Assembly: GCA_031430855.1 (NCBI GenBank)
Contig: JANPCG010000015.1
Coordinates: 641 to 64,640, forward strand
Direction: 5' to 3'
Source of the DNA: Candidatus Kaiserbacteria bacterium
GTDB lineage: Bacteria > Patescibacteriota > Minisyncoccia > Phycocordibacterales > UBA918
DNA length: 64,000 nt
Numbering within the stretch: the first letter of the stretch is position 1; each line of letters starts with the position of its first letter. A program made the position numbers and the translations under genes. Shown in pieces: positions 1 to 17,815 of this stretch. The notes under the pieces are model-generated. The model did not search any database, was not told the DNA's origin, and worked only from the letters and a program-made list of their open reading frames with translations.

Positions 1-668
1 GTGCCGTCACTACTCCACAGTATGGTAGCTGACTGAAATGGCACGTTGAATATCGTTCGACTAATGCGAGTAGAAGGCATGAGAGATTTTCCGATAATTC
101 CCTCAGTCGAAAGCTCACTAAAGAGAAGTTCATTATTGTATGAAAAAGCAAAATCTTTCATCTGTGGTGCCAGATTGTAGACGATACTCTCTTCTCCTCC
201 GACTAACTCAATCAATACGACTTCATTCTGAGTTCCATACCCAGAGCGAATAGCCACATATTTTCCATTTGGGCTAAATGCGGCCGATTGCGCGTTAACA
301 ATAGTTGTTTTAGAGAGCCGTTCCTCAACTCCGGTCTGTAAATTGATTTGATACACATGTCCGGTACCCGCTTCTGCGTAGCGAACAAATCTAGGTTCAC
401 TTGTTGTCGCTTGGTAATCACGAAATCCAATCACCGGTTTGGTGGTAAGTTGTCGTAGTTTGGTGGTGAGGACATCAACGGTAGTGGGAGGCACCGACTC
501 TTCTGGGGTTTCGATAAATTCACCAGGCGTATCTGAACCTAGGCCACTAAAGTTAGTAAAAACGTCAGTCAGTTGTTTTGGGGTGCCATAAAACAACAAA
601 TATAACCAAATGGTAAACAGAACAACGACCGCTGCAATTCCAATGAGAATAAGGGTTGATTTTTTCAT
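1..668 (-). CDS. Partial CDS (N-terminal part; continues past window start). N-terminal membrane anchor followed by PD40/TolB-like beta-propeller repeats (FSPNGKYVAI-type motif).
   Basis: Minus-strand ATG at 668 (MKKSTLILIGIAAVVVLF...). Frame stays open to position 1. PD40-like repeat motif seen by eye. Not in the ORF track because it is truncated. Confidence 0.5.
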   Translation of the reverse strand, partial: MKKSTLILIGIAAVVVLFTIWLYLLFYGTPKQLTDVFTNFSGLGSDTPGEFIETPEESVPPTTVDVLTTKLRQLTTKPVIGFRDYQATTSEPRFVRYAEAGTGHVYQINLQTGVEERLSKTTIVNAQSAAFSPNGKYVAIRSGYGTQNEVVLIELVGGEESIVYNLAPQMKDFAFSYNNELLFSELSTEGIIGKSLMPSTRISRTIFNVPFQSATILWSSDG

Positions 669-671
669 AGA

Positions 672-1670
672 CTAAAATTGAACACGGAATGACTCCTCGT
701 CACCCTGGAGTAATTCGGATAGATTACGAATCTTGAACCCAACTCGGGCTTCCCCGCCCCCTTCTCGTTGGATATTGATTTCAAAGGGATCTCTTGTTTC
801 GGTGTTGCTTATTTGGCTATTAATTCTCCATTCGGTAAAGAGTGAGCGTGAAATTGAACGGGTGTCTAGGTTATAGGGCACTGCTCTGATGGTGCTACTA
901 TTTCCCACAAGGGTAAGGGAATCACCAATCGCTCGCTCGGAGAGTCCGTAGAGTGTGCTGTTTTCGTAAAAAATAACGTCAACCTCTTGGATTGGAATAG
1001 ATACAACCTTACGACCAACTACCTCCCCACTTTTGCTAGTAATCGTCAGGCCAATTAAGCTGTTGCGCCCGAACGGCACCACGATCTGGGCCCGATTATT
1101 CCCCGCGCGCGGACCACCGTAAATTGACTTACCATTAAGTTGCCAATTGTAGGTATATTCCTGTGGGTTAAACATTCCGTTACTGCCTTGGATTAAGGTC
1201 GTGAGATTTATGATACTTCCATGTACTGGTAAAGCGCGACCGTGGTAAAAAACGGAAGTATAGGTTTGTGGTTCAACTACCAAATCAACGTAAAGGGGTC
1301 GAATGGTAGTTTTGGCCGAAATGGTTGGTTTGTTAGAAAAGACCAAACGCACTTCGACGGTAATAGTTTTTCCAACCGTTGGTGAAATGAGTGAAATGGT
1401 TCGTAAATTTTTAAATGTGGGAGTTTCAATACCGTCCAGGATCCACAGAATAGTAGCGCCACTACTATCGATAGAATAATCATCCAGCTCAATACTAACG
1501 AGCTCGCCAGGGCCCGGAAATTGTGGACTCAGGGTGATATTTACAGCATCTCCGATAAAGCTAGAGTCGAGTTGAGCCGACGCGTTGTTTCCGAGGCAGA
1601 AAAAACCAACCAGTAAAATTAAAACCAATATTCGCATTACTCTATTGTAGCAAATGTTTTTTGCCATCAT
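672..1670 (-). CDS. Secreted hypothetical protein with signal peptide (MRILVLILLVGFFCLGNNASA). Start may be internal at 1637.
   Basis: 332 aa ORF with an N-terminal hydrophobic signal. Same strand as the T4SS-like cluster. Confidence 0.5.
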   Translation of the reverse strand: MMAKNICYNRVMRILVLILLVGFFCLGNNASAQLDSSFIGDAVNITLSPQFPGPGELVSIELDDYSIDSSGATILWILDGIETPTFKNLRTISLISPTVGKTITVEVRLVFSNKPTISAKTTIRPLYVDLVVEPQTYTSVFYHGRALPVHGSIINLTTLIQGSNGMFNPQEYTYNWQLNGKSIYGGPRAGNNRAQIVVPFGRNSLIGLTITSKSGEVVGRKVVSIPIQEVDVIFYENSTLYGLSERAIGDSLTLVGNSSTIRAVPYNLDTRSISRSLFTEWRINSQISNTETRDPFEINIQREGGGEARVGFKIRNLSELLQGDEESFRVQF

Positions 1671-1683
1671 GTCGGTTTTACCG

Positions 1684-2421
1684 CTATTTTGGGTTAATTA
1701 CTACCGCCGCTACCCAGAGTCCTAAGAGCGGCAGCATATTAAGTAAGGGTACAAATGAACTAATTAAAATCAACAAAATGGAAATAATTTTAAATGCCGC
1801 CCCCCGACCGAACCAAGGATGGATAAAACCAATTTTAAATAACACTGTCCCGATGATGATTTGGCAGAAATAAAAAAAACAAATTAAGGCACTAAATATT
1901 AAGTAGACAAACATAAACATATCAACCGTAAAGCCTCCAATCAATTCCACGGTTGCAGCAGCAGCTTCCGCGACAAAGGAACTGTCGACTAACAATTGTG
2001 CTGCGTAGGCGAGACCAAAGAAAACACTCGCGACTACTGCTAACGGGAGCTGGATTGTTAAATACCAAGGAATAGCCCAGGCAGAAATACCGGCGGCAAT
2101 AGGAGTAGCACGGACCCGGGCTAAATTAACTAGTACTGTTTGTTTGAGTCTCTTTAGGCGACTTTTTTTCTCGCGTGGTAGGGGGGATGGAGTGGGGGCA
2201 AAGTTTTCATTAGCTGCCGCTGACGGTTCGTTGTAGCTTTGTGCGATCTCATTTTGGTATTTAACCCGGGGTCGGTTTGGCGTATTTGCTGCTCTCCCCG
2301 GCTGCACATTCCGTTGCATGGTTTGTAGTTGGGCATTCTGGACGCCCCATTGATTTTTGGGGTAATTTTCTGCCTCAAATTGAGACGCAATGTCGGGATG
2401 AAGCGGATTGGAAGCGGCCAT
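1684..2421 (-). CDS. Polytopic membrane protein, hypothetical (hydrophilic N-terminus, several C-terminal TM helices)
   Basis: 245 aa ORF with several long hydrophobic stretches. Lies next to the VirB4 gene. Confidence 0.5.
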   Translation of the reverse strand: MAASNPLHPDIASQFEAENYPKNQWGVQNAQLQTMQRNVQPGRAANTPNRPRVKYQNEIAQSYNEPSAAANENFAPTPSPLPREKKSRLKRLKQTVLVNLARVRATPIAAGISAWAIPWYLTIQLPLAVVASVFFGLAYAAQLLVDSSFVAEAAAATVELIGGFTVDMFMFVYLIFSALICFFYFCQIIIGTVLFKIGFIHPWFGRGAAFKIISILLILISSFVPLLNMLPLLGLWVAAVVINPK

Positions 2422-2436
2422 AACACCCTCAGTATA

Positions 2437-4236
2437 CTACAGCTGAGTGCCCTCTAGTTCACGCCTCGCGTTTTTTATCTGGAGGATTTGTGACGGGTCA
2501 GAGGTGATAATCTGATCCTCGGTATAGGACGCAATGACTTTAATTGCCACGTGTTTTAACCCTACAAAGAATAATCCTTCCCCCACATCGGATTCGAGCA
2601 ATAAGAATTTTTCTTCATCCGTAAGGTTGAAGGTACGTTGAATGTTATCAATCGCGGTTGGTGATTGTTTCATGAGAAATTGAAGAGAAGAGTTGGTAAT
2701 CATTGGTACGCCATAGGGGGAACGAAGAAAGTCATCCACATCTTGGGTAATGGTCGCAATCCCTAAAAAGTACTTCCGTCCTCGTTTAGCGAGACTGAAT
2801 AAAAACGATGCGGTATCTTCTGATTTCATCATCCACCACGCCTCATCAATCACCAGGAGTCGTTTAACGAGACGGCGCCTGATGGCAGACCAAATATAAT
2901 TAGTCACAATAAACATCCCAATAGTTTTGAGTTCATCTTCCATATCGCGCAGTGAAAACACCACAAATTTTTGATTTATATCAACGTTTGTTGGGTGGTT
3001 CATAAACCCAGACCAGGTTCCCGAGGTATATTTCTGTAGCCGACTGATGAGTGACCCACTCCCATTCATACCTGCCAACACCATTTCAAAATCGGATAAC
3101 AAAGGCGGCTCGAGCTCGCTAAAATTACTTTGTTCGGTAATGTCTTTTAGTGCGTAGGTCTCGCGAATTGCTTGATCGACGATCGTTTCCTCTTCGGGAC
3201 TGAGTCCGCCTAACATCAGTCGGAACAACCCAATGAGGTGCACGATTTGTGAGCGAAGGATGTCAGCCGGCTCCTCGTCTTCCCCAGGGGCTGGTAAATC
3301 AAACGGGTTAATGTGGTGTTTTGACGAAAGCGAAATATTAAAGAAACGTCCACCGGTTGCTTCAGCTAGGTATTCATATTCGCGCTCAGGGTCGATCACT
3401 ATCACTTCTGTTCCAAACATTAGGGACCGTAGAATTTCCAACTTAATACTGTATGACTTACCGGCACCAGAGGTCGCAAAGGTAACCGAGTTGTAGTTCG
3501 TGAGACCAAATCGATCAAATAGTACCAAAGATGAGTTGTGGCGGTTAATGCCGTAGAGGATTCCGGTGTCTGAGGTGAGGTCAAATGAGGTAAAGGGAAA
3601 AAAGCTCGAAAGGGGTGAAGAATTAAATTTACTATGGACCATTAATTCATCAGTACCGGTTGGAAAAATACTTCGTACCCCTTGTTCTTGCTGAAACAAA
3701 GCCGGTTTAATATAAATTAACTTAGAGTCAAGTGAACCTTTGATGTCATTTTCGACCTTATTCAAGGCTGTTTCGGTGTCACCATAGACGGCAATATAAA
3801 GCCCTACATCAAATAACTTTTCCTCAGCCTGTTGAAGTTTGTCACGCAGCTCTTCGAGATTGCGGTAGGCTGCTTCGAGCTGCGGGTCACGCACTTCCCC
3901 ACGATTGGCACGGATGTTAATTTGACTCTGTACCTCGGCTACTTTTTTTTGGAATTTTTTTAGGGTTTCTGCCGTACTGATAGGGTGAATTACAATCGTG
4001 ACATCAAGTTCCTTCTCGAGGTTAAGAATTGGTTCAAGCCACCCATCATTTAAATAGCGCGGGTAGGACACTGCGTAGAACACACGAGCTTGCGTTCCGC
4101 TAATGTTAATACTCCGGGGATTGATATTAATTGCTGACGGTGCAATCACATCAGTCAAGGTCAAGAGACTTTCACTAATCGCGTCCTGGCTCGGAGTTGT
4201 TTTAGGTTTAGGTTTTAAGTTGTCGAATAATCCCAT
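2437..4236 (-). CDS. VirB4/TraC/PrgJ-family type IV secretion / conjugation ATPase (C-terminal ATPase portion or complete short form)
   Basis: Walker A FATSGAGKSYS, Walker B VIDEAWWMM (DEAW) and a downstream ITQD motif. The N-terminus has a YPRYL-type motif seen in Gram-positive VirB4 proteins. Confidence 0.8.
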   Translation of the reverse strand: MGLFDNLKPKPKTTPSQDAISESLLTLTDVIAPSAININPRSINISGTQARVFYAVSYPRYLNDGWLEPILNLEKELDVTIVIHPISTAETLKKFQKKVAEVQSQINIRANRGEVRDPQLEAAYRNLEELRDKLQQAEEKLFDVGLYIAVYGDTETALNKVENDIKGSLDSKLIYIKPALFQQEQGVRSIFPTGTDELMVHSKFNSSPLSSFFPFTSFDLTSDTGILYGINRHNSSLVLFDRFGLTNYNSVTFATSGAGKSYSIKLEILRSLMFGTEVIVIDPEREYEYLAEATGGRFFNISLSSKHHINPFDLPAPGEDEEPADILRSQIVHLIGLFRLMLGGLSPEEETIVDQAIRETYALKDITEQSNFSELEPPLLSDFEMVLAGMNGSGSLISRLQKYTSGTWSGFMNHPTNVDINQKFVVFSLRDMEDELKTIGMFIVTNYIWSAIRRRLVKRLLVIDEAWWMMKSEDTASFLFSLAKRGRKYFLGIATITQDVDDFLRSPYGVPMITNSSLQFLMKQSPTAIDNIQRTFNLTDEEKFLLLESDVGEGLFFVGLKHVAIKVIASYTEDQIITSDPSQILQIKNARRELEGTQL

Positions 4237-4242
4237 GTTGTT

Positions 4243-4872
4243 CTATTGTATCGTAGGTGCGCTCCCGGTGATATCACCCGGATTGTATATGTGGTAAAAG
4301 AGTTCAACTAATTCATCGGTCTGGAGTGCAATCGTGCGGACTCCGATTCGGTTGAGTCCCTGTTCAACAATTGCTTGGCGTTGCTCGAGCTGGAGGCGCT
4401 GCTCTTCGATGGTCATATCATTTTGGATACTCATGCGGCCTTGAGAAATGATACTCCCAAAGCTTTTCGTGAGGTTTACCTTGGCGGCTGTGTAGGGAAC
4501 CACAACAAAAAAGTTTTTACTCATCACATCCACATCAGCCACAAAAGAGCGAATAAACTCAATGTATTCACGCAGCTGGATTCGCATTAAGTCGTTATCT
4601 TGATCGACGTTTCGCTCGTTAAGCATCGCTAAATACGGCTCAATATTAAGACGTCTTGATTGGACGTAAATCTGCAGTGAGAAATCAAGCGTGTTGAGGA
4701 AGTTTTGAAACTGAAACAGAATGGCTCGTTGTTCATCTTGAGATTTGAGCGCAAAGTTAACCGAAGAAGCTAAAAGAATCTTGCACAACTGACCACTTTT
4801 CAGTATGACAATATCATCGCGAATATCACGAATGGCAACAAATTCTTGGGTGGCTGCATTAGGGGTTGGCAT
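4243..4872 (-). CDS. VirB4 N-terminal-domain-like ORF. It is in frame with the downstream ATPase and separated only by TAG plus two codons.
   Basis: 209 aa, hydrophilic. The architecture (IRDIRDDIVILKSGQL...) resembles VirB4 N-domains. The stop TAG at 4243-4245 is in frame with the ATG at 4236. Confidence 0.45.
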   Translation of the reverse strand: MPTPNAATQEFVAIRDIRDDIVILKSGQLCKILLASSVNFALKSQDEQRAILFQFQNFLNTLDFSLQIYVQSRRLNIEPYLAMLNERNVDQDNDLMRIQLREYIEFIRSFVADVDVMSKNFFVVVPYTAAKVNLTKSFGSIISQGRMSIQNDMTIEEQRLQLEQRQAIVEQGLNRIGVRTIALQTDELVELFYHIYNPGDITGSAPTIQ

Positions 4873-4875
4873 AGA

Positions 4876-5307
4876 TTATTTTTTTTGAAGAGCTTGCAAT
4901 TCGAGACGCCTGGCGAGCGAGGTGATATCTTTTTTTGGACTACTCGCGGCGGGTATATAGCCAGGATTACGAATGGTTGTCGTGGGTAAGAAGCTTTGCT
5001 TGTGAATTATTTCTCGTTGTTGCTGCCAGAGATAGAGACGGTGTCGCCTAAAGTAATTATAAATAGCTTCTATAAAGTACGAAAAAGGTCGATTGTTGAT
5101 AGGGTAAAAAGAGAGCGCTCCCGCGAGAATTCCAAGTGGCAATCCAATGAGTATAAACACAATAAACGGAGCGGTGAGAAACAGTACGACCGCCATTCCG
5201 GCTCCCCCACCGAGATAGAGAAATTGCCGCCAAGTAAACGGGCCAAAAATTTTATCTTCAATTTCGATGAACTGCGGCACTTCAAATTGCATACCCGTAT
5301 TATACAC
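4876..5307 (-). CDS. PrgI/VirB3-like small membrane protein of conjugation systems
   Basis: 143 aa with two N-terminal TM helices (FTWRQFLYLGGGAGMAVVLFLTAPFIVFILIGLPLGIL). Sits directly upstream of VirB4, as in Gram-positive T4SS loci. Confidence 0.5.
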   Translation of the reverse strand: MYNTGMQFEVPQFIEIEDKIFGPFTWRQFLYLGGGAGMAVVLFLTAPFIVFILIGLPLGILAGALSFYPINNRPFSYFIEAIYNYFRRHRLYLWQQQREIIHKQSFLPTTTIRNPGYIPAASSPKKDITSLARRLELQALQKK

Positions 5308-5356
5308 GCACGAGGCAGTGTGACGAGAGCACTATCCCAAAATGTATTTCAGTTTA

Positions 5357-6037
5357 TTAGGCGCCCCAGCGTGGTGTTTCAATTGATGTCGCAGGCGGTG
5401 TCGTTGGTTTGGCGTCAGGGGTAGAGGTGTATGCCGGCAGGTCAGAGAGTGGGGTGCGCACTGGCGGTTGCTCCGAGGTATAGACCGGTGTTTCAACGTC
5501 AGCGATTGGTTCATAACTGGTTCGCTCTGGTGACCGCGCCATATCACTCGCCATAGTACGGATTTCAGGCATATGCGGTACTTCTTCAGTCGGAATGGGT
5601 GTAGCGCCGGTGACGGGAATACTCACGCTTGATGGTGGAATATAGAAGGTTGCACTAGAATGAGTGCTGGGGGCAGGTATAGGTGTAGACACTATGGTTT
5701 CTTCGGTTTCCGCATCTTCCTCTTCTGGTACAACAAAAGTTGGGTCAGAGAGTGGCGCCAAGAACTCGAGCACATCTGCCCCTAGTAATCCCGCGGTCGT
5801 CGCGTCTAGCCCAAGCTCTTGTTGGAGGAGTGGGACGGTGTCTTCAGTTCGGTAGAAGCCGAGGATGATGTCCCCCAGAGTTAATATTAAATCTACGTAT
5901 ATTTTTTCAAGGTGGTATTTTGTACTCATCATGATGCTAAGCTCAACAAGTCTTTTGTTGTAAAAGAACTGAATTTTTTCTGAAGACTGTTCGAGCACCT
6001 GTAGTCTTGAGTTGTGAGTTGTGTAGTTATGGTCCAT
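5357..6037 (-). CDS. Hypothetical protein with a Pro/Thr-rich C-terminal tail
   Basis: 226 aa ORF. Low-complexity PT-rich end. Overlaps the upstream gene by 11 nt. Confidence 0.4.
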   Translation of the reverse strand: MDHNYTTHNSRLQVLEQSSEKIQFFYNKRLVELSIMMSTKYHLEKIYVDLILTLGDIILGFYRTEDTVPLLQQELGLDATTAGLLGADVLEFLAPLSDPTFVVPEEEDAETEETIVSTPIPAPSTHSSATFYIPPSSVSIPVTGATPIPTEEVPHMPEIRTMASDMARSPERTSYEPIADVETPVYTSEQPPVRTPLSDLPAYTSTPDAKPTTPPATSIETPRWGA

Positions 6038-8327
6038 ATTTCTTTTTTCCTTCTTCGCTTCTGAAGTACGCTAATACACCTGGCTGAATTCCCCACCGAG
6101 CTGCATTAAATTCAAACACCTGACGAAGTTGAAATCGCTGCGCTTGATCAAGCGTCCCTTCTTTTGCGATTTCTTCAAGTATACCAGAGGATATTTTTGG
6201 ATATGCGGAAGAGTATGAAGCGTCGAGGAAAACCTCTTTCGGTAGTTGGATAAATTCCTTAGGCTTTTTGGCAAGCTCTGTAAGTATTGCGTCCGCACCA
6301 CCTCCAGGACTCTGAATAAGATCCAATATACGAGATTTCTTGTTTTGTTTAATTGAGTCATTAAGTTCAGGGGTGGTTTTCTTAGAATTCTTTGTCCAGT
6401 CATCCAACTGAGTAGCTGATAGTAAATGGCTGTTGGTGGATACCCATTCAACCCCAAGTGTGTCGAGCTCGTCTCGTGTGAGCTTTGAGGTTTTGCTTGG
6501 TGAAGGGGTTGCAATGCCTCCAATTTTATTACCAACGGCAGTTTTTCTTGCGCCAGCAATACCACCCTTTTCACTGGAAGAGATCTTTTCGCTGTCCATT
6601 AGTTTTGAGGTTTGATCAGTAGTAAAGGAAGAAGCGTATTTTGCTCGTGTTTTAGAATCAAGATCTTCGATATCACTTTTTGAAAGACCTGTAATGTATT
6701 GTTTGGCTTTAGCCTCTTCTCCCTCCAGTGATACGAGTTTACTTCTATCGTCTGCTGACATACCAGCGTATGTTGCTGGATTAGCGGCAAGAGAACGGAG
6801 ACGTTCCAATTCAGGTCGATTTTTATCGGTATCTTTGACTGCAGCCCGGCCTTTCTTGGTGTCCTTAATTCCCTGCATTCTTGAACGGTTTTTTGTTACG
6901 TCAGCCTTTTCTGATTCGATTTCACTACGTGTTTTAGCTAGACCGGTTCCGCCGGCGCCGTACTCGTAACCAGACTTAAGTCCGTTACGTAAAGATCGAG
7001 TTCCCGGCAAATTTGACATGCCAGTTCGGTCCATTATGTTCAGACCAAGCTTTGATGCTCTTCCGCCTGTGTTTCTGTAGAGAACACCTTGGGTATTTTT
7101 ACGCAACGTATTTCCCATCGAAATTGCCGTTGAGGCACCAACTGCTCCCATACTACGCGCAACAGACAGTGACATAACCAAGAACACCATTGCCATAATA
7201 AAGAACGGCAAAACAGCCAGCGCACTCTGACTGGTCGCCGGGTCGGGAGAAAACATCGCGGCGTAACTTTGTGCCCCTGGGCGAGTACTGTAGGCGTAAA
7301 GGACGCGGAACGAAAGGTACAACATCAGTAAATAGGCAGGAGCAAAAAATGCTTGTTTAAGAAATCCAGTCCAAAACTTACTCGAAGTCCCGGAGAAGGC
7401 AGGAAACACCCACCCGAGGAACATAACCGGTGAAAACACCATATAGACATTAAGCGCAATAAATCGAATGATAAGTAAGATACCCCCTGCAGCAAACACA
7501 AAAGTGGCAGTTGCAAGGAATATCATTAAACCGAATATATACGCTAATGCCCCACCATTCCCAAATGCCGTTATCTGGCCTTGAGAAATCTCGAGGGTTG
7601 TCTCAAGGTTAAGAATGTTTATGAAGGCATTTGCAATGTCACCGCGCGCTTCACCAAAACCGTCAGCGATTACCGATGATGCCACGTGGGAGAGATCAAT
7701 GATAAATTTGGTAATAAAAAGACTAAAATTTACCAAGAGGGCCGCTCCGATTAAAGACACGAGCATGCTGCGTGCGCGTGAGTCACTCGAATCAAGAATC
7801 ATCTTAAAGCCTATGTATACTAACCCAAAGATAAAGGTGAGGTTAAAGAGGTCTCGAATGATTCGCCACACTTCTTCTACTGCAAAGCCAATCCCGTCAT
7901 TGTAGTAGCGGTCACCAAACCCGAGAAGGAAAGAATTAATACCAAATGTCATCAAATATCCAGCAAAGGAAAAGAGTGTTGTAAACACTGAGTAGACGAA
8001 TTCATAGAGCCATTGGTAGAGTGGGTTGGCAAACTGAACGGTTGGTACTTCAGTGGTTTGGGTCTGAGTTTCTTCGGGTGCAGCCGCGCCCCCGCCAGTA
8101 GTGCCGCCGCCATAGGTGCCAGTTACGGGGTCATATGTTGGAGCAAAGCCGGGTCGGTTAAATTGATCAGAATAGAAACCGCGATCAATAGGGTCTGTCA
8201 CTACCGGCGGTCTCGGACCAAGGTCTCCGGCGTAAGCAGTTTGACTTATAAGAAGAAATCCAAACAGTAACAAACTACCGATCAGTATCGCTATAAAGCT
8301 CTGCATTTTTGTTACCTGTCTAATCAT
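6027..8327 (-). CDS. Large polytopic membrane protein, putative VirB6/TrbL-like T4SS channel component with a hydrophilic Lys-rich C-terminal domain
   Basis: 766 aa. Signal/TM at the N-terminus, a Gly-rich linker, at least six predicted TM helices, then about 350 aa of hydrophilic tail. Position in the cluster fits. Confidence 0.4.
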   Translation of the reverse strand: MIRQVTKMQSFIAILIGSLLLFGFLLISQTAYAGDLGPRPPVVTDPIDRGFYSDQFNRPGFAPTYDPVTGTYGGGTTGGGAAAPEETQTQTTEVPTVQFANPLYQWLYEFVYSVFTTLFSFAGYLMTFGINSFLLGFGDRYYNDGIGFAVEEVWRIIRDLFNLTFIFGLVYIGFKMILDSSDSRARSMLVSLIGAALLVNFSLFITKFIIDLSHVASSVIADGFGEARGDIANAFINILNLETTLEISQGQITAFGNGGALAYIFGLMIFLATATFVFAAGGILLIIRFIALNVYMVFSPVMFLGWVFPAFSGTSSKFWTGFLKQAFFAPAYLLMLYLSFRVLYAYSTRPGAQSYAAMFSPDPATSQSALAVLPFFIMAMVFLVMSLSVARSMGAVGASTAISMGNTLRKNTQGVLYRNTGGRASKLGLNIMDRTGMSNLPGTRSLRNGLKSGYEYGAGGTGLAKTRSEIESEKADVTKNRSRMQGIKDTKKGRAAVKDTDKNRPELERLRSLAANPATYAGMSADDRSKLVSLEGEEAKAKQYITGLSKSDIEDLDSKTRAKYASSFTTDQTSKLMDSEKISSSEKGGIAGARKTAVGNKIGGIATPSPSKTSKLTRDELDTLGVEWVSTNSHLLSATQLDDWTKNSKKTTPELNDSIKQNKKSRILDLIQSPGGGADAILTELAKKPKEFIQLPKEVFLDASYSSAYPKISSGILEEIAKEGTLDQAQRFQLRQVFEFNAARWGIQPGVLAYFRSEEGKKKYGP

Positions 8328-8387
8328 TTCGTTTTTACTCCAATCTCTCCGTTATTCTAACACCCCTCCCTTAATTCCGTGCAGAAA

Positions 8388-9863
8388 TTATGGGAGTATA
8401 CGACGCCACTCATTCACTCGCTGGGAAATTTCACTCGCTGAGGTAAGGGTGCCATTGGCAGTGAGGTCAATAAAATCAACTGCGACGTCCTGCCTAATCG
8501 CTCCAACCGGCTGCTGAGTCGTGGCGGTAGAACTTGCCGTGTCGTGACGGGTAATCATGGTGGTGAGGGTGGTTACATTGGTTTGTACGCCAACTCGAAT
8601 CGTAGTGGCGCTACTAATGAGGCTCACCAATTGGGAACTTGGTGGTGTAGTGTCAGAAGAGACGGTAGAGGTGCCGGCCGGCAGACTGGCTCCGGTAGGG
8701 CTCAAACCACGAGACCTCAGTTCAGCAGTAGCTCGAGCAATGTAGTTGTCAATAATGGCCAAGAAATTTTGTTCATTTTGGAGAGCGGTATTTATCTGAG
8801 TCCTAATCGTTGAGGTGTCAATAAAAATCCTATCGTTTTCTTCGCGAGCAGCATCTATATATGAACTGGTACCATTACTACCAAAACTATTATCCGCATA
8901 CGCTGAGTTTCCACCCAAGCCTAAGAGTCCGTTAATACCACGCATCGCCTGGAGCGTGAGTTGACTAATCAGGGCACCAATAATTTCATTAATTTCGTCT
9001 GCTTCAATTAAGGTTCGCTGTCCGGTTGAGAGCTGGAATGTTAAGGCTTCACTAATTACCTTGCCCGGTGTGGTTATTTTACAATTAGCTCCTTTTCCAG
9101 CCGGTTTACCTTCAATGGCTTCACAAACACGTTTTGAGAGGAAACCATCACTCCAGCTCGCTATTTCAATTTCTTGACCAGCTTCATTTTTGAGTCGAAT
9201 GTCGAGTTTTGCTTCAGCTTCTAGGTAAGCTCCATACGGGGTGTTTTGGGGGTTGCTACTCATTTCAAGCCATTCTTCCCAACCCCCATTACTGACGCCG
9301 CTCAAGAAACCCTCGATATTGTTTTGAATATCGGAAAGTCGACAAGCCGGTGCTGTTGGTCCAGACGGCATGCCGCTCCGCGCCTGCTGGTAGTTAATTG
9401 CCAAAGCGGCCTGGACATCAAGTCGGAATGGTGAACAAATAAATTCACCAATTCCTCCCAGACTACGAATATATTCACCGGCGGCAGTATCAAGTGCATC
9501 AAGTAAAAAACCATTTAAGTCTGTAATAAACGCTGGGCTACCTTGAAATCCAGAGTTAATCCAGTTAACGAGACTCTGGGTCATTTGACTCATAATTTGT
9601 TTGGCAATGGCCCAACCAATTCCATCAAGGAGCTCTTTATTTAAAAGACCGGCCGTAGACACCGCTGTGATACCGGTATTAGCAGCAGTGAGCGTGTTTT
9701 GTACCGCTGAAACAGCTAATTCTGCCTGTTGGGTAATCTGCATTCCTAATGTAGCGTTTCCTCCAGCGGCACGGGTATAAGGAGTTGTTGCAGTAGTGAT
9801 AGTAACTACGAGCACTACCGCAAGGAAGCTCGTACCAAATTTTTGTAGTAAAGAACGTGTCAT
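8388..9863 (-). CDS. Secreted hypothetical protein (signal peptide FLAVVLVVTITTATT), T4SS-cluster associated
   Basis: ORF track 8388..9971. The likely true ATG at 9863 gives MTRSLLQKFGTSFLAVVL... Confidence 0.5.
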   Translation of the reverse strand: MTRSLLQKFGTSFLAVVLVVTITTATTPYTRAAGGNATLGMQITQQAELAVSAVQNTLTAANTGITAVSTAGLLNKELLDGIGWAIAKQIMSQMTQSLVNWINSGFQGSPAFITDLNGFLLDALDTAAGEYIRSLGGIGEFICSPFRLDVQAALAINYQQARSGMPSGPTAPACRLSDIQNNIEGFLSGVSNGGWEEWLEMSSNPQNTPYGAYLEAEAKLDIRLKNEAGQEIEIASWSDGFLSKRVCEAIEGKPAGKGANCKITTPGKVISEALTFQLSTGQRTLIEADEINEIIGALISQLTLQAMRGINGLLGLGGNSAYADNSFGSNGTSSYIDAAREENDRIFIDTSTIRTQINTALQNEQNFLAIIDNYIARATAELRSRGLSPTGASLPAGTSTVSSDTTPPSSQLVSLISSATTIRVGVQTNVTTLTTMITRHDTASSTATTQQPVGAIRQDVAVDFIDLTANGTLTSASEISQRVNEWRRILP

Positions 9864-9873
9864 AATAATTATG

Positions 9874-10791
9874 TTATTGCGGACTAAAGGCAACAAATAC
9901 ATATACCGGATCGTTTTGATTAAACACTTTGACATGTGGAATGAGTACGTTGTATATATTTTGAAGAGCAAAGGCGAGGCCGGTGGCGTCGTCCTGATAA
10001 CGCTTCACGCGCAACAAGGAAACCACCGGATCTTTAAAGGCAAGTTTTAATCCATCTAAACTTGCAAACATAGCTTGATATACATTAATGAGATCGAGGT
10101 GCTGCTTCTCAAAACCGCGTGGTACGGGGGTAGCAAGTGCGTCATCGCGCAGGGCTTTGTACATGGCAATTAGTGGTTCAAGTTTCTCTAATTCAGCGGG
10201 GTTTTCGGTCTTCATCGCGCGATCAATAATCACCAGCTCTCCTTCTGAATTAGGAACATTCCGCGCTGAGAGGCTACTGCCGAGACTGTTCCCCCAGGCG
10301 CGAATTGCTTCCGGGGTGTTTTCTACAACAGTAATCATACTTCCATTATAGATAGTGTCACGAATGACGGTATTTCTGAGGATGTCGGTCGTTTCGGCAA
10401 CGACTTGTTCCGGAGTAGGTCCCACATTCCCCCGCCCTTTTGCCCTTAGGACGGATTGAAAGAGTTGAATACTCATTTGATCAGTAACCGTATTTGGCAC
10501 TTCGTAGACTGATGCGCTTTGGGGCTCAATATCAATTTGGAGTGGTGTTTGGGGGGCAAATTCTTCTTGCCAATCCTCAATTCCGTTTTGATCGCTGTCA
10601 ACCACTTCAATGAATGAACGCTCAGGTGCTGTGGCGGCAACGGTATACACCGATGGGTCTGCTGTTGGTGGAGTGAGGGTCGTCGGTCGAGTTAGGCTAC
10701 TGATAGTATATGAACCACCAACGAGCGCCAAACCAACCACAAACGCGCCGAGAATTTTTGGGTTAGGTTGCATACCCAATAAGTATAACAA
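9874..10791 (-). CDS. Membrane-anchored hypothetical protein
   Basis: 305 aa. N-terminal TM helix (ILGAFVVGLALVGG) then a hydrophilic domain. Confidence 0.5.
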   Translation of the reverse strand: MLYLLGMQPNPKILGAFVVGLALVGGSYTISSLTRPTTLTPPTADPSVYTVAATAPERSFIEVVDSDQNGIEDWQEEFAPQTPLQIDIEPQSASVYEVPNTVTDQMSIQLFQSVLRAKGRGNVGPTPEQVVAETTDILRNTVIRDTIYNGSMITVVENTPEAIRAWGNSLGSSLSARNVPNSEGELVIIDRAMKTENPAELEKLEPLIAMYKALRDDALATPVPRGFEKQHLDLINVYQAMFASLDGLKLAFKDPVVSLLRVKRYQDDATGLAFALQNIYNVLIPHVKVFNQNDPVYVFVAFSPQ

Positions 10792-10849
10792 GGTAGATGC
10801 TATAAAATTGATACAGCGTGTATAACATGTGCTTAACGTGGGGAATACG

Positions 10850-11764
10850 TTAGATGATTGGTTGGGGAAAACGTTGGGGATAGGTGGAGAGGTCTTTAAA
10901 AAGAATCAACCATTTTTCTAAAGGCACTACTTCAGCCCGTACATCAAGCAGTAGATTATTTTTTTGAAAAAGGTCTTGCAGGTACCTTCGATCGTATTGA
11001 TGACTTAGGTTAGAGAGTAATTGTTTCCGTTTTTGTCCAAAGCCGAGGTGTAAAAGGTTGAAAAATATAGCCATTTCGTCTAAATCAGTAAAATGTGTTC
11101 GATTGATGTGGCTAACCTGGAGAATGGCTGAGTCAACCTTTGGGACCGGATTAAAGTGTCCTCGACCAACCGTTTTAAGGTACCGGGGTATTCCAAAAAC
11201 TTTTACCGATAAAGAAAGGAGTGATTCTTTAGGGTCGCGAGCGATTCGCTCCACGACTTCTTTTTGCATTAAAAATACTAGTGTTGTTGGTTGAACTGGT
11301 CCTTCTAAGAGGGTACGCAAAAGATATCCAGAGAGGTAGTACGGAATGTTAGCCACTACTTTAAAGGAGTGGTCGACTAATCCTAGGATGGACATATTCA
11401 GTTCGCGGGCATCCCCGTGGTGAAGCATGAGTTTGGATGATGCAATTTCTTCCGTAAATTCAGTCTCTAATATAGTAATTACCCGCACATCAGCTTCGAC
11501 CGCAATCACTCGCGCGCCTGTTGCTAAAAGGGCTCGGGTGAGTGCACCGGTACCGGGGCCAATTTCTAGTATGGTATCGTCCGCCGTAACCTCTCCTGCG
11601 GCCACGAGCCACCCAGGGACAATAGCACTCGTGAGGAAGTTTTGTCCAAGAGACTTTTTATGTTGAAATCGTTCAGTTGACTCATTGGTGTCAGACTGCC
11701 TTCCTGCTCTGTGTCGTGGCTTCATGCATCGAGCATACCTATATATGTATGTGGGCGCAAGCAA
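10850..11764 (-). CDS. rsmA: 16S rRNA (adenine1518/1519-N6)-dimethyltransferase RsmA/KsgA. True start may be internal (MKPRH...).
   Basis: SLGQNFL and GPGTGALT SAM-binding motifs. Confidence 0.85.
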   Translation of the reverse strand: MLAPTYIYRYARCMKPRHRAGRQSDTNESTERFQHKKSLGQNFLTSAIVPGWLVAAGEVTADDTILEIGPGTGALTRALLATGARVIAVEADVRVITILETEFTEEIASSKLMLHHGDARELNMSILGLVDHSFKVVANIPYYLSGYLLRTLLEGPVQPTTLVFLMQKEVVERIARDPKESLLSLSVKVFGIPRYLKTVGRGHFNPVPKVDSAILQVSHINRTHFTDLDEMAIFFNLLHLGFGQKRKQLLSNLSHQYDRRYLQDLFQKNNLLLDVRAEVVPLEKWLILFKDLSTYPQRFPQPII

Positions 11765-11773
11765 GGTTGATTG

Positions 11774-13735
11774 TTAGTCTAGAAAAATAGTTGTTTCGTA
11801 GCCAGAACTGGTATTTCCCCATCCCTTTGGATTACTGCTCTCAATATAATCAGTACTAATGTCATTTAAAAAGGATGACGGCACATTCACTCGCTGACTG
11901 CCGTAAATAGTACGCATGTGCGCGTAGGTAAGGTACACCTTTTTCTCAGCTCTCGTGAGGGCCACATAAAACAGTCGGCGCTCCTCTTCGTGGTCAATTC
12001 CCGCATCATCAAGTCGTTCATGAGGAAACAGACCTTGCTCCAATCCACAAATGAATACATACGGAAACTCAAGACCTTTCGCTGAGTGTACCGTCATTAA
12101 ACGGACAGCGTCTTGTTCTTCTTTGGCTTTTAGTTCATCTTGATCACTTTGCAGTGCTGCATTCTCGAGGAGAGCCTCGACCGCGGCTTCTGGCTCGAGC
12201 TCGTCATAACGAATTGCCAAGGTGACTAATTCCCGCAAATTCTCCAATCGTGACAGATCATCTTCGGTGCCATTTTTTTTCAACTCAGTTTCTATTCCGG
12301 TTCGTTTAATAATAAATTTAAGGGTCTCGGAGAGCGGTTTGGTCCGTGCTTCATCAGCAATATCCATCATGATTTGATCAAATCGCTCAACTTTCTCAAG
12401 GGTTGCCCCTTTCAGTTCGCCCCGCTTCCCTTCCATAACTTTAAGCATCGTAACTTTCCCAATACCGCGCACTGGCTCATTGATAACTCGAGCGAGGTCA
12501 GCCGTACTGCCGGGATTTAAAGCGAGACGCAAATACGAAAGAACATCCTTTACCTCTTTTCGTTCAAAGAATTTGGTGCCCAATAATTGGTACGGTACAT
12601 TAAAGTTAAGAAACGCTTCTTCTAAAACTCGTGATTGAAAGTTCGTTCGATATAAGACGGCAATCGCGGACGGGGCGATGCCGGTAGCGACTAGTTTCTG
12701 TGCTGTGTGGGCAATGTATTCCGCTTCATCAATCCCGGTCATTGCAGCGTAGAGACTTATTTTTTCTCCTTCACTATTGGTAGTAAACACCTCCTTCGCG
12801 ACCCGGTTTTTATTTTTTTCTATCACATCATTAGACGCTCCGATGATATTTTTGGTTGAACGATAGTTTTCTTCGAGGAGAATCGTTTTGGTGGTTGGAA
12901 AATAACGTTCAAACTGTAAAACATTTTTAATATCTGCCCCCCGCCAGGAATAGATATTTTGATCAATATCTCCTACGACACAGAGGTTGTGTTTGGTTCC
13001 GGCGAGGAGTTGGGCAATCTCAAACTGCACCCGGTTTGTATCCTGGTACTCATCAATGTGAATATATTGAAATCGCCGCTGCAGTGTTTCGCGAATATGT
13101 GGGTAATTCTCCAGCAGTCGTAACGTTTTAATAAGGAGGTCATCAAAATCAAGTGCATGCTCTACTTTCATAATCTCTTCATAGGTAGCCCATACTTCAG
13201 CTGTCACCCGATCAGGGTATGATGAAGCGGCTTCTTTAAAGGCGGCAGGGGTTTTGGCATCACCCTTAGCGCGTGAGATTTTCCCAATAATTTTTCGTGG
13301 TTCAAATTCTTTGGGGTTATACCCACCGCGCTCCAGGGCAGTTTTTATCGCTCGAATGCTATCCGCACGGTCATAAATGGTAAAGTGCCGACGGAGTCCA
13401 AGGGTTTCGTGATGTTCACGCAAAATCCGTACCCCGAGCGCGTGAAAAGTAGTAACGGTCGGCAGAGAATCAAGCGCAGCTCGATTCGTCGGAGGAAACT
13501 CACGAATTAACTTTTCGACCCGTTCACGCATTTCTTTAGCTGCTTTATTCGTGAATGTCACCGCTAAAATATTGTGTGGGGCTACCCCCTCGTGAATTAA
13601 ATGGACAATCCGATGAGTAATAACACGGGTTTTTCCAGAACCGGCTCCGGCGAGAATAAGCAAAGGTCCTTCCGTGTAGAGGACGGCTTCTTTTTGGGGA
13701 GGATTTAGTCCTTGGAGGTATATTCGATCATTCAT
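11774..13735 (-). CDS. pcrA: ATP-dependent DNA helicase UvrD/PcrA family
   Basis: GAGSGKT Walker A; full 653 aa UvrD-like architecture. Confidence 0.9.
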   Translation of the reverse strand: MNDRIYLQGLNPPQKEAVLYTEGPLLILAGAGSGKTRVITHRIVHLIHEGVAPHNILAVTFTNKAAKEMRERVEKLIREFPPTNRAALDSLPTVTTFHALGVRILREHHETLGLRRHFTIYDRADSIRAIKTALERGGYNPKEFEPRKIIGKISRAKGDAKTPAAFKEAASSYPDRVTAEVWATYEEIMKVEHALDFDDLLIKTLRLLENYPHIRETLQRRFQYIHIDEYQDTNRVQFEIAQLLAGTKHNLCVVGDIDQNIYSWRGADIKNVLQFERYFPTTKTILLEENYRSTKNIIGASNDVIEKNKNRVAKEVFTTNSEGEKISLYAAMTGIDEAEYIAHTAQKLVATGIAPSAIAVLYRTNFQSRVLEEAFLNFNVPYQLLGTKFFERKEVKDVLSYLRLALNPGSTADLARVINEPVRGIGKVTMLKVMEGKRGELKGATLEKVERFDQIMMDIADEARTKPLSETLKFIIKRTGIETELKKNGTEDDLSRLENLRELVTLAIRYDELEPEAAVEALLENAALQSDQDELKAKEEQDAVRLMTVHSAKGLEFPYVFICGLEQGLFPHERLDDAGIDHEEERRLFYVALTRAEKKVYLTYAHMRTIYGSQRVNVPSSFLNDISTDYIESSNPKGWGNTSSGYETTIFLD

Positions 13736-13967
13736 GTCGCCGACTACTATACCATAGTGTCTGATAAATTTATGAAACGCATTTAATAAAAAGTCAATGT
13801 AATAAAAAACGGCCTACCCTAGGGTTCATTTTGGAGGTATCGACGCCAAAACGTTAAAAGTGCACTTCGTCAATTGTACTCTCGCGACAGTCTAGTAGAA
13901 TTGTCGACATACCAATGGTGGTATGAAAAAGCGAACTTCGCTTTTTTATTTCTGAAAATTTTCTGTA

Positions 13968-15083
13968 ATGGTTGTACTGCGGCGTGTCCATAACTCATTT
14001 CATATTCAACCTCAATCAAAAAATTCTGACGTAACCTATACTAAGAGTCCTCTGCGACAGAACCCATATACGGCAACCCACTATACGCTTGAGCTAGTTT
14101 TATTAGTGCTTGCTATTGTTGTTCCGTTCTCTGTGCAGGCCGGTGTTTTTCAAAATATCATGAGTAATGATAGAGGTGAGGTTGTTGTAGAAACAGCTCT
14201 TCTGTCTGATTTACCAGTTGATGCTCCCGTTTTGGTAGCGGCGGCAAATCCTGATCCAAACAATGCTCGTGGTGGGGCTGAGGTAACTGCCCAAGATGGT
14301 GTCCTCATTTCTACCGGTCCCGTTGGTAAAGATATAATTTCAGCTGCCCGAAGTAATAGTGGAGAGATTAGTGTCTACACCGTACGACCAGGTGATTCCC
14401 TTTCGCAAATTGCTGAAATGTTTGATGTTACCTCTAACACTATCCTCTGGGCTAATGACCTCCCCCGCGCCTCAGCGATTAAGCCCGGCGATGCACTCGT
14501 AATCTTGCCTGTTGCGGGAGTGCGGCATGTTGTTCGCTCGGGTGATTCGATTGCGGTTATTGCAAAAAAATACGAAGGCAATGCTGAAGAAATCATTTCC
14601 TATAATCAGCTTGATAACGAAAGTGATTTACGTGTCGGTGAGACCTTGGTGATTCCGGGAGGAGCGATTCATACCTCGCCCGTAAAAGCTCAGTCGAAAG
14701 CTGCACCAACCAAGTCATCAGGTTCAGTCGGAGGAGCGATTGGTTCCTTTATAAATCCGGTGCCAGGCGCTATCAAGACCCAAGGACTTCATGGCTACAA
14801 CGCCGTAGATTTTGGTGGAGCGATTGGCAGTCCTATTAGAGCTGCGCAGAGTGGAGTGGTCCTGGTGGCCAAAAGTGGTGGTTGGAATGGCGGGTATGGA
14901 AACTATATCGTTATCAAACATAAGAACGGTACGCAGACACTCTACGCACACCTTTCTCGAGTTGATGTAGGCGTGGGAGCTACGGTCGCTCAGGGTACTA
15001 CTATCGGCGCTCTCGGAAATACGGGCAAGTCGACGGGGCCACATCTACACTTTGAAGTTCGAGGCGGAAAGAATCCATTTTAG
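13968..15083 (+). CDS. LysM-domain M23 family metallopeptidase (peptidoglycan hydrolase)
   Basis: LysM repeats (YTVRPGDSLSQIA, HVVRSGDSIAVIA) and an M23 HxH motif (GPHLHFEV). Confidence 0.85.
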   Translation: MVVLRRVHNSFHIQPQSKNSDVTYTKSPLRQNPYTATHYTLELVLLVLAIVVPFSVQAGVFQNIMSNDRGEVVVETALLSDLPVDAPVLVAAANPDPNNARGGAEVTAQDGVLISTGPVGKDIISAARSNSGEISVYTVRPGDSLSQIAEMFDVTSNTILWANDLPRASAIKPGDALVILPVAGVRHVVRSGDSIAVIAKKYEGNAEEIISYNQLDNESDLRVGETLVIPGGAIHTSPVKAQSKAAPTKSSGSVGGAIGSFINPVPGAIKTQGLHGYNAVDFGGAIGSPIRAAQSGVVLVAKSGGWNGGYGNYIVIKHKNGTQTLYAHLSRVDVGVGATVAQGTTIGALGNTGKSTGPHLHFEVRGGKNPF

Positions 15084-15196: not shown

Positions 15197-15919
15197 TTGA
15201 ACGTTTCGCAACTTCATGCGTATGTATCGTTGATCATCTTATGTGATGGTAAACTTATGCAAGTGAAATACCTAAGAACTACTTTTTCATTTTTTTGGAG
15301 CGCGCAAATTTATTTACTTGTGGGAGGATTTTTATTTTGGTTCCCAGATGATATAAATTCTTTATTTGGGTATCTTGCCAGTTTCGTATTTACTTCACTC
15401 GGTGCGTGTTTAGTAGTGCTCTCATTTAGAAGTACGTTGCGCCCCGTGGAGTTGTTACTCCCGCTGATACTTTTTTCGGGAATCACCTACTTATTTATTA
15501 AGTATTTTTACATGTCTGAGCGCACAGAAATGTTTGTTCTCGGAATGTATTCTATGGGTTTCACTATGGTAGAAACAGGACGGTTTCTTTATAACAATAG
15601 TAGTATTTCCGATAAACTACATGTCTTCCCTCTCAGTAGCCATTTAGTGGCTAGTACCCTTTCATTAGGAGTTTGGTTTTTTAGTGTTGACTTTTTGCCA
15701 TGGCAGTCGGAAGTTACAATACTAAAAAGTATATTGATTACCTATATTTTGATTGGTGTTAGTATCGTTTTCCTCCAAACATGCGAAAAATATCATGTTA
15801 TATCAATACAAACACTTAAAAAACTTTTCACCTATATTTTTGTATCCGTATTCATTATAACGACCATAAGCCTCTTTTCTTCTTTTGTAGTATTTGAACT
15901 CTCAAATACTAAATTTTAA
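15197..15919 (+). CDS. AT-rich polytopic membrane protein, hypothetical (start uncertain)
   Basis: 240 aa hydrophobic ORF. Local AT content is higher than in neighbouring genes. Confidence 0.4.
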   Translation: MNVSQLHAYVSLIILCDGKLMQVKYLRTTFSFFWSAQIYLLVGGFLFWFPDDINSLFGYLASFVFTSLGACLVVLSFRSTLRPVELLLPLILFSGITYLFIKYFYMSERTEMFVLGMYSMGFTMVETGRFLYNNSSISDKLHVFPLSSHLVASTLSLGVWFFSVDFLPWQSEVTILKSILITYILIGVSIVFLQTCEKYHVISIQTLKKLFTYIFVSVFIITTISLFSSFVVFELSNTKF

Positions 15920-17426: not shown

Positions 17427-17440
17427 GATAGGTGCCGATA

Positions 17441-17815
17441 TTAAAGGTGTACGCGGTACTCTTCTTCCCGGTGCAAAATACACGTCCGGGCGGCAGGGTT
17501 TATCTGCAGGCGCTCTGTTTCGATTACGTTTGTACATACTTCGCAGGTACCAAAGGTTCCGGTTTTTATTTTATCAAGAGCGTGAACAATCGCGTGGTAT
17601 CGGTTTTCTAACTCAGCTAATATACTGACTCGTTCATCAGCCTCTTCCGCAGCATCTGCCAATAGGTCAGTATCAGCTTCAGGGTTGGCTGTATCCGCAG
17701 TCGACACTTCCCAATCATCAGTTTTGGGGTTACGCACAGCAATTTCTCGTAATTCATTTTCAATTTCAAATAGCATGGCGTCTAACTTTTTTCGTTGTTC
17801 AGGTAATTGTTCCAT
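17441..17815 (-). CDS. DksA/TraR-family C4 zinc-finger protein
   Basis: CxxC...CxxC near the C-terminus (CEVCTNVIETERLQINPAARTCILH); coiled-coil N-terminus. Confidence 0.7.
   Translation of the reverse strand: MEQLPEQRKKLDAMLFEIENELREIAVRNPKTDDWEVSTADTANPEADTDLLADAAEEADERVSILAELENRYHAIVHALDKIKTGTFGTCEVCTNVIETERLQINPAARTCILHREEEYRVHL

Follow-up and report, generated by a model that had tools for sequence, protein, structure and literature searches.

How is a type IV secretion system (T4SS) to be understood when no relaxase, coupling protein or integrase is found around it? The question is raised by a stretch of 64,000 nucleotides, hereafter the window, from contig JANPCG010000015.1 of a Candidatus Kaiserbacteria genome (assembly GCA_031430855.1). 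Ten minus-strand genes at positions 1-10791, named here g9 to g0 in transcriptional order, follow one another with at most 64 nt between them or with overlapping ends, and encode among others a VirB4 ATPase, a PrgI-like protein and a putative VirB6. The best explanation, to which a probability of about 0.8 is given, is that the region is a chromosomal, vertically inherited T4SS of the Patescibacteria clade, belonging to Kaiserbacteria/Paceibacteria (Parcubacteria), derived from the mating-pair formation (MPF) class FATA and no longer conjugative. Lineage-conserved envelope proteins surround its core, namely g9, g8, g2, the Ig-like g1 and the TolB-like g0. Systems of this kind have already been described in papers from 2023-2025. 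The first-pass annotation, which had proposed a Gram-positive-type T4SS from the letters of the window, was therefore right but not new, and the locus says nothing new about whether such a system exists or how it is generally built. Added here are structural support for the 766-aa g7 protein as an extended VirB6, a delimited group of partners that are conserved yet unannotated, among them a secreted family whose members number in the thousands, and evidence for modular pilins. Patescibacteria account for much of bacterial diversity and are host-dependent. Their conserved T4SS, essential in the one genetically tractable species, is a leading candidate for the interface through which they extract what they need.

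The recognisable membrane core of the T4SS consists of a VirB4 split into g4 and g3, together with g5 and g7. Gene g3 (2437-4236) encodes the central and C-terminal ATPase part of VirB4, a protein of 599 aa. It matches the NCBIfam model conju_CD1110 over model positions 166-733 (E 6e-112, 375 bits, curated cut-off 325) and Pfam P-loop_TraG (E 1.3e-25). Both Walker A (ATSGAGKS, residue 254) and Walker B (LLVIDE, residue 460) are intact, and the gene was found by tblastn with PrgJ (7e-41) and TrsE (4e-34). A match to 'terminase large subunit' in PHROGs was discarded as a generic resemblance of the P-loop/HerA-FtsK type. Directly upstream, g4 (4243-4872) codes for a TrsD/TraD-like protein of 209 aa, the equivalent of the VirB4 N-terminal domain. 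It is recognized by NCBIfam TrsD NF041427 (E 3.5e-6) and by positions 2-169 of the CD1110 VirB4 model, and its counterpart on a near-identical public contig, L081, carries a precomputed Pfam assignment to TraC-like PF26593. Since g4 covers the beginning of the CD1110 model and g3 the remainder, the N-terminal domain of VirB4 is a separate protein in this system. Pairwise BLASTP gave no match between g4 and TrsD of pSK41, the relationship being detected by the NCBIfam profile only. The third member of the core, g5 (4876-5292), is a small PrgI/VirB3-like membrane protein of 138 aa that matches Pfam PrgI PF12666 (E 6.4e-10, 39.9 bits, cut-off 27). The VirB4 and PrgI calls of the first-pass annotation are thus confirmed by hidden Markov models (HMMs), and a VirB4 above the CD1110 (MPF-FATA) cut-off, accompanied by PrgI and a TrsD-like protein, bears out the Gram-positive type. 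The nine genes listed in that annotation are present as described; the 209-aa g4 had been overlooked. The seven remaining proteins have no match of their own in Pfam, NCBIfam or PHROGs, save a weak TolB match on g0.

At least 535 VirB4 relatives were confirmed among GTDB species representatives, and the locus statistics given here refer to the best 80 of these 535. All 80 are metagenome-assembled genomes (MAGs) of Patescibacteria, with VirB4 identities of 67-92%, in agreement with the candidate phyla radiation (CPR)/Patescibacteria context proposed earlier for the cluster. The named ones belong to Kaiser-, Pace-, Parcu-, Nomura-, Zambryskii-, Taylor-, Campbell- and Adlerbacteria, and the others are generically labelled third-party annotation MAGs. 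When the window proteins were searched against these loci by tblastn, matches were obtained for g4 in 79 loci, g5 in 77 (directly upstream of g4), g1 in 68, g7 in 62 and g8 in 55, for KsgA in 47 and PcrA in 38, counts that are limited by flank length, for g0 in 38, and for g9 in 37, where it holds the same position. Many of the missing matches reflect short contigs or flanks. The order common to the loci is PcrA-KsgA-g9-g8-g7-(g6)-g5-g4-g3-(g2)-g1-g0. In the 38 loci holding all three proteins, the median identity is 70.5% for VirB4, a value inflated by the choice of loci by VirB4 similarity, compared with 55.6% (PcrA) and 45.9% (KsgA); VirB4 exceeds both of the others in 38 of 38. This pattern indicates that the cluster is probably under strong purifying selection. 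The GC content of the cluster (0.453) is close to that of the rest of the window (0.444). Synteny and uniform composition together exclude a recently acquired mobile element, and the mobile-element reading was rejected on the same PcrA-KsgA, pilin and g0 flanks across species, the lack of a GC shift and the lack of an integrase.

The end of the cluster lies outside the window. The ENA contig L081, whose gene calls were used to adjust the gene starts, is 99.389% identical to window positions 1-14236 and extends 7.5 kb past position 1. Near-identical contigs also occur as JAYSUO010000056.1 (GCA_043719065.1) and scaffold_952 of ENA ERZ28573538, and the loci L002, L018 and L053 derive from long contigs. 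In it, two paralogous genes for VirB2-like pilins of 294 and 280 aa are located at L081:14737-16540, about 0.5-2.3 kb past position 1. In each product, a signal peptide is combined with two hydrophobic helices and, at the C-terminus, a Cys-rich domain; both weakly match Pfam T4SS_pilin (E 3e-3) and TrbC/VirB2. The family as a whole is more easily recognized, with 42 of 47 orthologues matching T4SS_pilin (best E 4e-9), and a pilin gene is found downstream of VirB4 in 58 of the 80 related loci. The earlier statement that no pilin is in view consequently holds within the window and fails about 0.5 kb beyond it, the apparent absence arising because the window edge cuts the cluster. With these genes included, the cluster counts at least 12, and the description of it as compact or minimal is an understatement. 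The pilin genes are followed in L081 by yidC, rnpA, dnaA, dnaN, a DciA-like gene and a gene for a penicillin-binding protein. Housekeeping genes therefore lie on both sides of the cluster, with dnaA at a distance of about 4 kb.

The two pilin genes of L081 are identical over exactly 362 nt, a stretch that opens with the ATG and closes with the two-helix pilin module, after which they diverge completely into different Cys-rich C-terminal heads with 9 and 13 Cys. The same pattern is seen between paralogues in three loci of other species, with 99.5% identity over 432 nt in L017, 99.7% over 391 nt in L021 and about 90% in L036; the paralogues of L024 are without it. Pilin ORFs across the loci range from 122 to 580 aa, much longer than classical VirB2. 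The pattern suggests a constant stem that may be maintained by gene conversion and heads that could be swapped, or else an artefact of assembly. Modular pilins of this kind, in which the heads vary and the stem is constant, could be relevant to host specificity.

A further observation concerns orientation. Should oriC be situated between rnpA and dnaA, in the arrangement of L081 (L081:16554-20897), the T4SS genes would be transcribed toward the origin, head-on with replication, and the same would hold for most genes in window 1-31000. The cumulative GC skew climbs steadily along the plus strand. The gene-dosage benefit near the origin that has been published leaves the head-on orientation unaddressed.

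Gene g7 (6027-8327) encodes the putative VirB6, of 766 aa. The protein is polytopic with a long hydrophilic tail, and comprises a signal-like N-terminus, a G/P/T-rich linker, a polytopic domain (residues ~100-400), a K/R-rich segment and a C-terminal domain of helical repeats (480-766). Transmembrane (TM) and signal-like segments, here and in the other proteins, are sequence-based predictions. Scans of g7 itself against Pfam, NCBIfam and PHROGs, including the TrbL, TrbL_2, TrbL_3 and PrgH profiles, gave no match even at E 10, and a profile search against the PDB returned only low-complexity and coiled-coil noise. Among its homologues, 12 of 56 weakly match Pfam TrbL (best E 1.5e-4), and a precomputed TrbL_3 match on L081 is graded 'faint'. 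Alignment of the family with the single sequences of PrgH and TrsL by hhalign was not significant (P 0.12 and 0.24), and both alignments place the same invariant g7 motif, R288...S299-P300. An AlphaFold2 model, built with an alignment of 55 homologues, reached a mean confidence (pLDDT) of 79, with values above 90 in the polytopic and C-terminal helical domains. Foldseek with this model returned no significant E-value and TM-scores of 0.33-0.44; the three highest hits by probability were chains of TrwI (0.93, 0.89 and 0.75). The gene also occupies the VirB6 slot of the prgH-prgI-prgJ order. From the fold comparison, together with gene position and the weak matches of family members, g7 can be regarded with moderate confidence as a putative extended VirB6, a channel or platform protein. 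The segment beyond the last TM helix is rich in K and R (13 K+R against 6 D+E), which under the positive-inside rule makes a cytoplasmic location of the C-terminal domain probable. Failure in HMM validation had been named beforehand as a reason to abandon the VirB6-like call of the first-pass annotation. The direct scans of g7 did fail literally, and this was judged to be outweighed by the structural evidence, so that the call survives through fold, position and family members.

The remaining members of the cluster are conserved to different degrees. The first, g9 (9874-10773), encodes a bitopic protein of 299 aa, or 305 aa from an alternative TTG at 10791, with a predicted N-terminal TM anchor at residues 13-31, in accordance with its earlier description as membrane-anchored. 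It bears a TSP3-type Ca-binding motif (DSDQNGIEDW), and 10 of 36 members of its family match Pfam TSP3_bac (best E 2.8e-10). Considered as a VirB8-like protein, g9 fits by its bitopic topology; beyond the TSP3 repeat, no sequence similarity was found to PrgL of pCF10 or in the PDB and Pfam. The 491-aa product of g8 (8388-9863) has the hydrophobic, signal-like N-terminal segment expected from its earlier description as secreted. It is mostly alpha-helical, with a strongly conserved core (residues 76-316) and four invariant Cys. Clustered at 50% identity, its family numbers about 4,800 representatives, with no Pfam domain or informative name in any source. The names of distant members are uninformative except for one fusion to a beta-helix domain; the relative P0336 (873 aa) is annotated with right-handed beta-helix repeats.

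Two genes are kept chiefly by position and topology and evolve fast. Gene g6 (5357-6037), whose start overlaps the stop of g7, encodes 226 aa with no TM segment and a C-terminal half rich in P, T and S; these make up 45% of residues 100-226, in accordance with the PT-rich protein described before. No family match was found in Pfam, NCBIfam or PHROGs. Sequence similarity to g6 is limited to 9 of the 80 loci, and a soluble ORF of ~150-300 aa fills the slot upstream of PrgI in most of them. The g2 product (1684-2421; 245 aa) is predicted to have a disordered N-terminal region of 100 aa followed by four to five TM segments. Its sequence was detected by tblastn in 10 of 80 loci, and a polytopic ORF with two to five TM segments follows VirB4 in most. 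It sits in the slot held by TrsF in pSK41, and was considered as TrsF-like or pilin-like; BLASTP to TrsF and Pfam and PDB searches of the positional family were all negative.

The last two genes of the cluster are g1 and g0. The 321-aa g1 protein (672-1637), for which the database gene call begins at a later start codon, has a signal-like N-terminal segment and invariant W76, W176 and W281, spaced by about 100 aa. Its family profile matches the Ig-like domains of phage T4 Hoc (3shs, E 4.8e-5), and this match and the Trp spacing point to three tandem Ig-like domains. Gene g0 (1-668) is cut by the window edge and is complete in L081, where it encodes 392 aa, an N-terminally anchored, TolB-like beta-propeller. 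The single sequence matches TIGR02800 TolB weakly (E 8e-4); at the level of the family profile, which matches TolB beta-propeller structures with E 3e-6 to 2e-5, the earlier propeller call holds. That all ten genes form one operon, as proposed before, is inferred from spacing and strand, since consensus scans of the cluster for promoters and terminators gave matches at chance level and no operon boundaries.

The genes expected of a conjugative system were sought in the window and in the 7.5 kb past position 1, about 71 kb in total. A Pfam scan of 40 window ORFs, consisting of the ten cluster genes and 30 others, including every ORF of at least 250 aa, revealed, besides housekeeping genes, a type IV pilus locus, with no VirD4, relaxase or integrase. 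Six-frame tblastn with PcfC and TrsK (VirD4) and with PcfG and Nes (relaxases) found nothing, which confirms the absence of these genes from the window reported in the first-pass annotation. In the extension beyond position 1, where that annotation had advised looking for a relaxase, neither a relaxase nor a coupling protein appeared in the precomputed Pfam assignments of L081 genes or by tblastn. A relaxase just past the edge, which would have counted against the first-pass reading, is thus missing on that side.

These features correspond closely to the published description of the Patescibacteria-clade T4SS. According to Quinonero-Coronel et al. 2025 (PMC12102498), the VirB4 proteins of Patescibacteria form a monophyletic clade nested in MPF-FATA, present in 2,407 of 3,035 genomes, with a class-congruent phylogeny and vertical inheritance. 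Of the components associated with it, TrsD is the commonest, and PrgI/VirB3 and VirB6 are found as well; VirB2-like pilin genes or arrays lie near virB4, with about 25% identity within the pilin arrays of other classes; relaxases are almost absent and coupling-protein (T4CP) homologues seldom adjacent to virB4. In Paceibacteria, the same paper finds the virB4 neighbourhood rich in DnaA, DnaN, RnpA and KsgA, and VirB1 homologues, some with M23/LysM domains, associated specifically with virB4. Wang et al. 2023 (PMC10633639) showed that a homologous cluster of Southlakia, including its pilins, is essential in co-culture and is without recognisable coupling or relaxase proteins. An MPF-FATA-derived VirB4 with an adjacent TrsD-like ORF is common to these systems, including that of Southlakia epibionticum ML1 (SEML1_0006-0019), as are PrgI/VirB3, VirB6 and nearby pilin genes, a chromosomal site near dnaA/KsgA without relaxase and, in Paceibacteria, a nearby M23/LysM hydrolase. 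The locus shares the VirB4 affinity, the TrsD ORF, VirB3 and VirB6, the pilin and the dnaA/KsgA site, and is an ordinary member of this group with no essential difference. In the parts of the 2025 paper that were consulted, no discussion was found of the conserved accessory proteins of Paceibacteria (g9, the g8 family, Ig-like g1 and TolB-like g0), or of pilins in which a near-identical stem bears long, Cys-rich heads at the C-terminus.

Several points weigh against the interpretation as a non-conjugative, vertically inherited T4SS of the Patescibacteria clade, or against parts of it. The role of the cluster is read from genes alone, and neither a VirB8-like nor a VirB1-like component has been demonstrated. 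The pilin genes come from a contig of 99.4% identity and not from the window itself, and the high relative conservation of VirB4 is affected by the selection of the loci. According to PMC12102498, VirD4 homologues lie far from virB4 in many Patescibacteria, so that a coupling protein could be elsewhere in the genome. Finally, the essentiality data concern Southlakia, which belongs to Saccharimonadia, a different class.

For the Patescibacteria-clade T4SS, the following mechanism may be proposed. VirB4, with TrsD and PrgI, would power the building, on a VirB6 platform, of a VirB2-type pilus or tube through an envelope with a single membrane; the exposed proteins, that is the pilin heads, g1, g0 and g8, would touch the host cell; and the apparatus would be required for epibiotic, host-dependent growth. 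A non-conjugative role in host interaction or uptake, as suggested in the first-pass annotation, agrees with the published reading (PMC12102498, PMC10633639 and PMC12857230). What passes through the apparatus is a separate matter, on which several explanations compete.

The explanation that survives best, although tentatively and at less than even odds, is a machine for the import of nucleic acids, which would take DNA or RNA from the host by way of the pilus or channel and thereby nourish a cell unable to make nucleotides, in the manner of archaeal Ced or ComB of Helicobacter pylori. Both Ced and ComB comprise VirB4, VirB6-like and VirB2-like proteins without coupling protein or relaxase, and the same composition is met here. 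They are cited as importers (PMC12102498 and PMC11665869). The g3 protein also gives a partial match to CedB (residues 434-503, E 8e-9), which is limited to the P-loop region and remains far under the cut-off of 700. Any likeness is functional only, and the VirB4 of this locus probably falls in the Patescibacteria clade and not in the archaeal or MPF-T clades (PMC12102498). A preprint by Katayama (2026; bioRxiv 10.64898/2026.06.21.733656) reports that a cultured patescibacterium takes up host RNA, and describes tubular structures, maybe T4SS pili, at the host interface. A 2024 PNAS perspective calls the function of the T4SS 'completely unknown' and proposes it as a route for nucleotide acquisition, and a 2025 FEMS review (PMC12857230) notes that Southlakia can do without ComEC and suggests, as a speculation, that uptake or signalling passes through the pilus. 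ComM, PNPase and RecJ are encoded in the same window, which is circumstantial. Against import stands that no nucleic-acid-binding component was identified in the cluster and that the link between T4SS and uptake would be one of analogy. Import would be a special case of the Patescibacteria-clade T4SS and does not contradict it, and the lack of a coupling protein, as in Ced and ComB, together with the RNA-uptake preprint, leads to a slight lean toward it.

A more elaborate version can be formulated, which is doubtful as a whole. The T4SS of Paceibacteria would be a host-tapping import organelle, whose pilus combines a constant VirB2 stem, kept identical by gene conversion, with interchangeable Cys-rich heads. 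It would further comprise an extended VirB6, g8 as a VirB5-like adaptor and the Ig-like and TolB-like envelope proteins. Swapping of heads would set the host range, and host RNA or nucleotides would be imported without a coupling protein.

Export of protein effectors, injected or released to manipulate or damage the host cell, is possible but somewhat less probable than import. Most non-conjugative T4SSs are effector translocators, and this role has been raised by Wang 2023 (PMC10633639) and in the PNAS perspective. The cluster itself encodes several proteins with signal-like N-termini (g8, g1); however, the N-termini of g8, g1 and g0 are of the Sec type, and the T4SS would not be needed for their export. 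Translocators almost always need a VirD4-type coupling protein, of which there is none nearby, and the Pfam, NCBIfam and PHROGs scans of the cluster yielded no candidate with a toxin or enzyme domain. That the structure serves adhesion or is a pilus only appears unlikely.

Much less probable still is a working conjugative element, either an integrative and conjugative element or an integrated plasmid, with its relaxase, transfer origin (oriT) and coupling protein elsewhere or beyond the sequence examined. The VirB4, PrgI and TrsD of the locus are homologous to conjugation proteins of pCF10, pSK41 and CTn2-type elements; T4CP genes can be far from virB4, and 103 Patescibacteria genomes carry relaxases, as stated in PMC12102498. 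Nevertheless, the same housekeeping flanks recur in dozens of species with no compositional shift, and VirB4 is more conserved than PcrA and KsgA, in line with the vertical, class-congruent phylogeny in that paper. Of what defines a conjugative MPF-FATA system, the relaxase, the VirD4/TcpA coupling protein and the mobile-element location were all lacking in the ~71 kb searched, and the only hydrolase is an M23/LysM protein encoded at 13968-15083, outside the cluster. A decaying, functionless remnant of an ancient conjugative element, which the missing canonical VirB8, VirB1, T4CP and relaxase and the fast-evolving g2 and g6 might recall, is effectively refuted by the conservation data, as all ORFs and the Walker motifs are intact, gene order persists in as many as 79 of 80 species, identities of VirB4 are 67-92% over a class-level radiation, and the homologous system is essential in Southlakia (PMC10633639).

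Comparison with well-studied systems places the Patescibacteria-clade T4SS of this locus more precisely. The order VirB3-like protein, TrsD, VirB4 and polytopic membrane protein is the same as TrsC-TrsD-TrsE-TrsF of pSK41/pGO1/pIP501, the only MPF-FATA subclass with a separate TrsD, as g4 likewise is. In contrast, pSK41 is a plasmid with VirD4 (TrsK), a relaxase (Nes), a CHAP hydrolase (TrsG), TopB and SSB, none of which is present here, and pairwise sequence similarity to its proteins was seen for VirB4 only. With the Prg/Pcf system of pCF10 from Enterococcus faecalis, the locus shares the prgH (VirB6)-prgI (VirB3)-prgJ (VirB4) order, the PrgI family and a VirB4 of the CD1110 family. PrgK hydrolase, the VirB8-like PrgL, PcfC (VirD4), the PcfG relaxase and LPXTG adhesins of pCF10 were not recognized here, whereas the pilin, missing in pCF10, is present. 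The polytopic domain of g7 resembles TrwI/VirB6 of the MPF-T systems R388 Trw and Agrobacterium tumefaciens VirB, which also have VirB2-family pilins; by analogy, this suggests that the pilus could be assembled on VirB6 by the same logic as the MPF-T stalk. The outer-membrane core of MPF-T (VirB7, VirB9, VirB10) has no equivalent in this monoderm organism, no VirB5 was recognisable, with g8 examined as a candidate, and g7 differs from the MPF-T VirB6 by an additional 290-residue helical C-terminal domain.

The neighbours upstream of the cluster are not part of the machine. KsgA/RsmA (10850-11725, minus strand; Pfam RrnaAD) lies directly upstream, followed by PcrA/UvrD (11774-13735, minus strand; Pfam UvrD), which is co-directional and syntenic across species. 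Divergent from PcrA is the gene at 13968-15083 on the plus strand, coding for a protein with an N-terminal TM segment, two LysM domains and a peptidase M23 domain (Pfam Peptidase_M23, E 4.7e-29). It was found upstream of PcrA in 13 loci, the 10-kb flank being too short in a few of these to show it, and may be a candidate VirB1-type cell-wall hydrolase of the T4SS. Further on lie a 240-aa ORF (15197-15919, plus strand) with no Pfam match, ComM (15909-17537), a 591-aa ORF (17847-19622, minus strand), also with no Pfam match, and PNPase (19724-21841), the latter enzyme and ComM being assigned by Pfam. At 23217-24236 (minus strand), an antitoxin-like protein of 232 aa with HTH_3 and SocA/Panacea domains is followed by a 105-aa ORF, a possible toxin-antitoxin pair among housekeeping genes. 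Rfam at the gathering threshold recognized only four tRNAs in the whole window. One of these, tRNA-Arg(TCG) at 31171-31243 (plus strand), is overlapped by a 153-aa ORF at 31139-31600 (minus strand), which is probably no gene. The type IV pilus locus is located at 52450-59245 on the plus strand and comprises the PilB ATPase (T2SSE, E 7e-119), PilC (T2SSF), two proteins that carry methylation motifs at the N-terminus (one has 596 aa and a CarboxypepD_reg domain) and an ORF of 478 aa without match. The genes for TIM, PGK and RecJ come after it. According to the literature, type IV pili and the T4SS are both essential in Southlakia.

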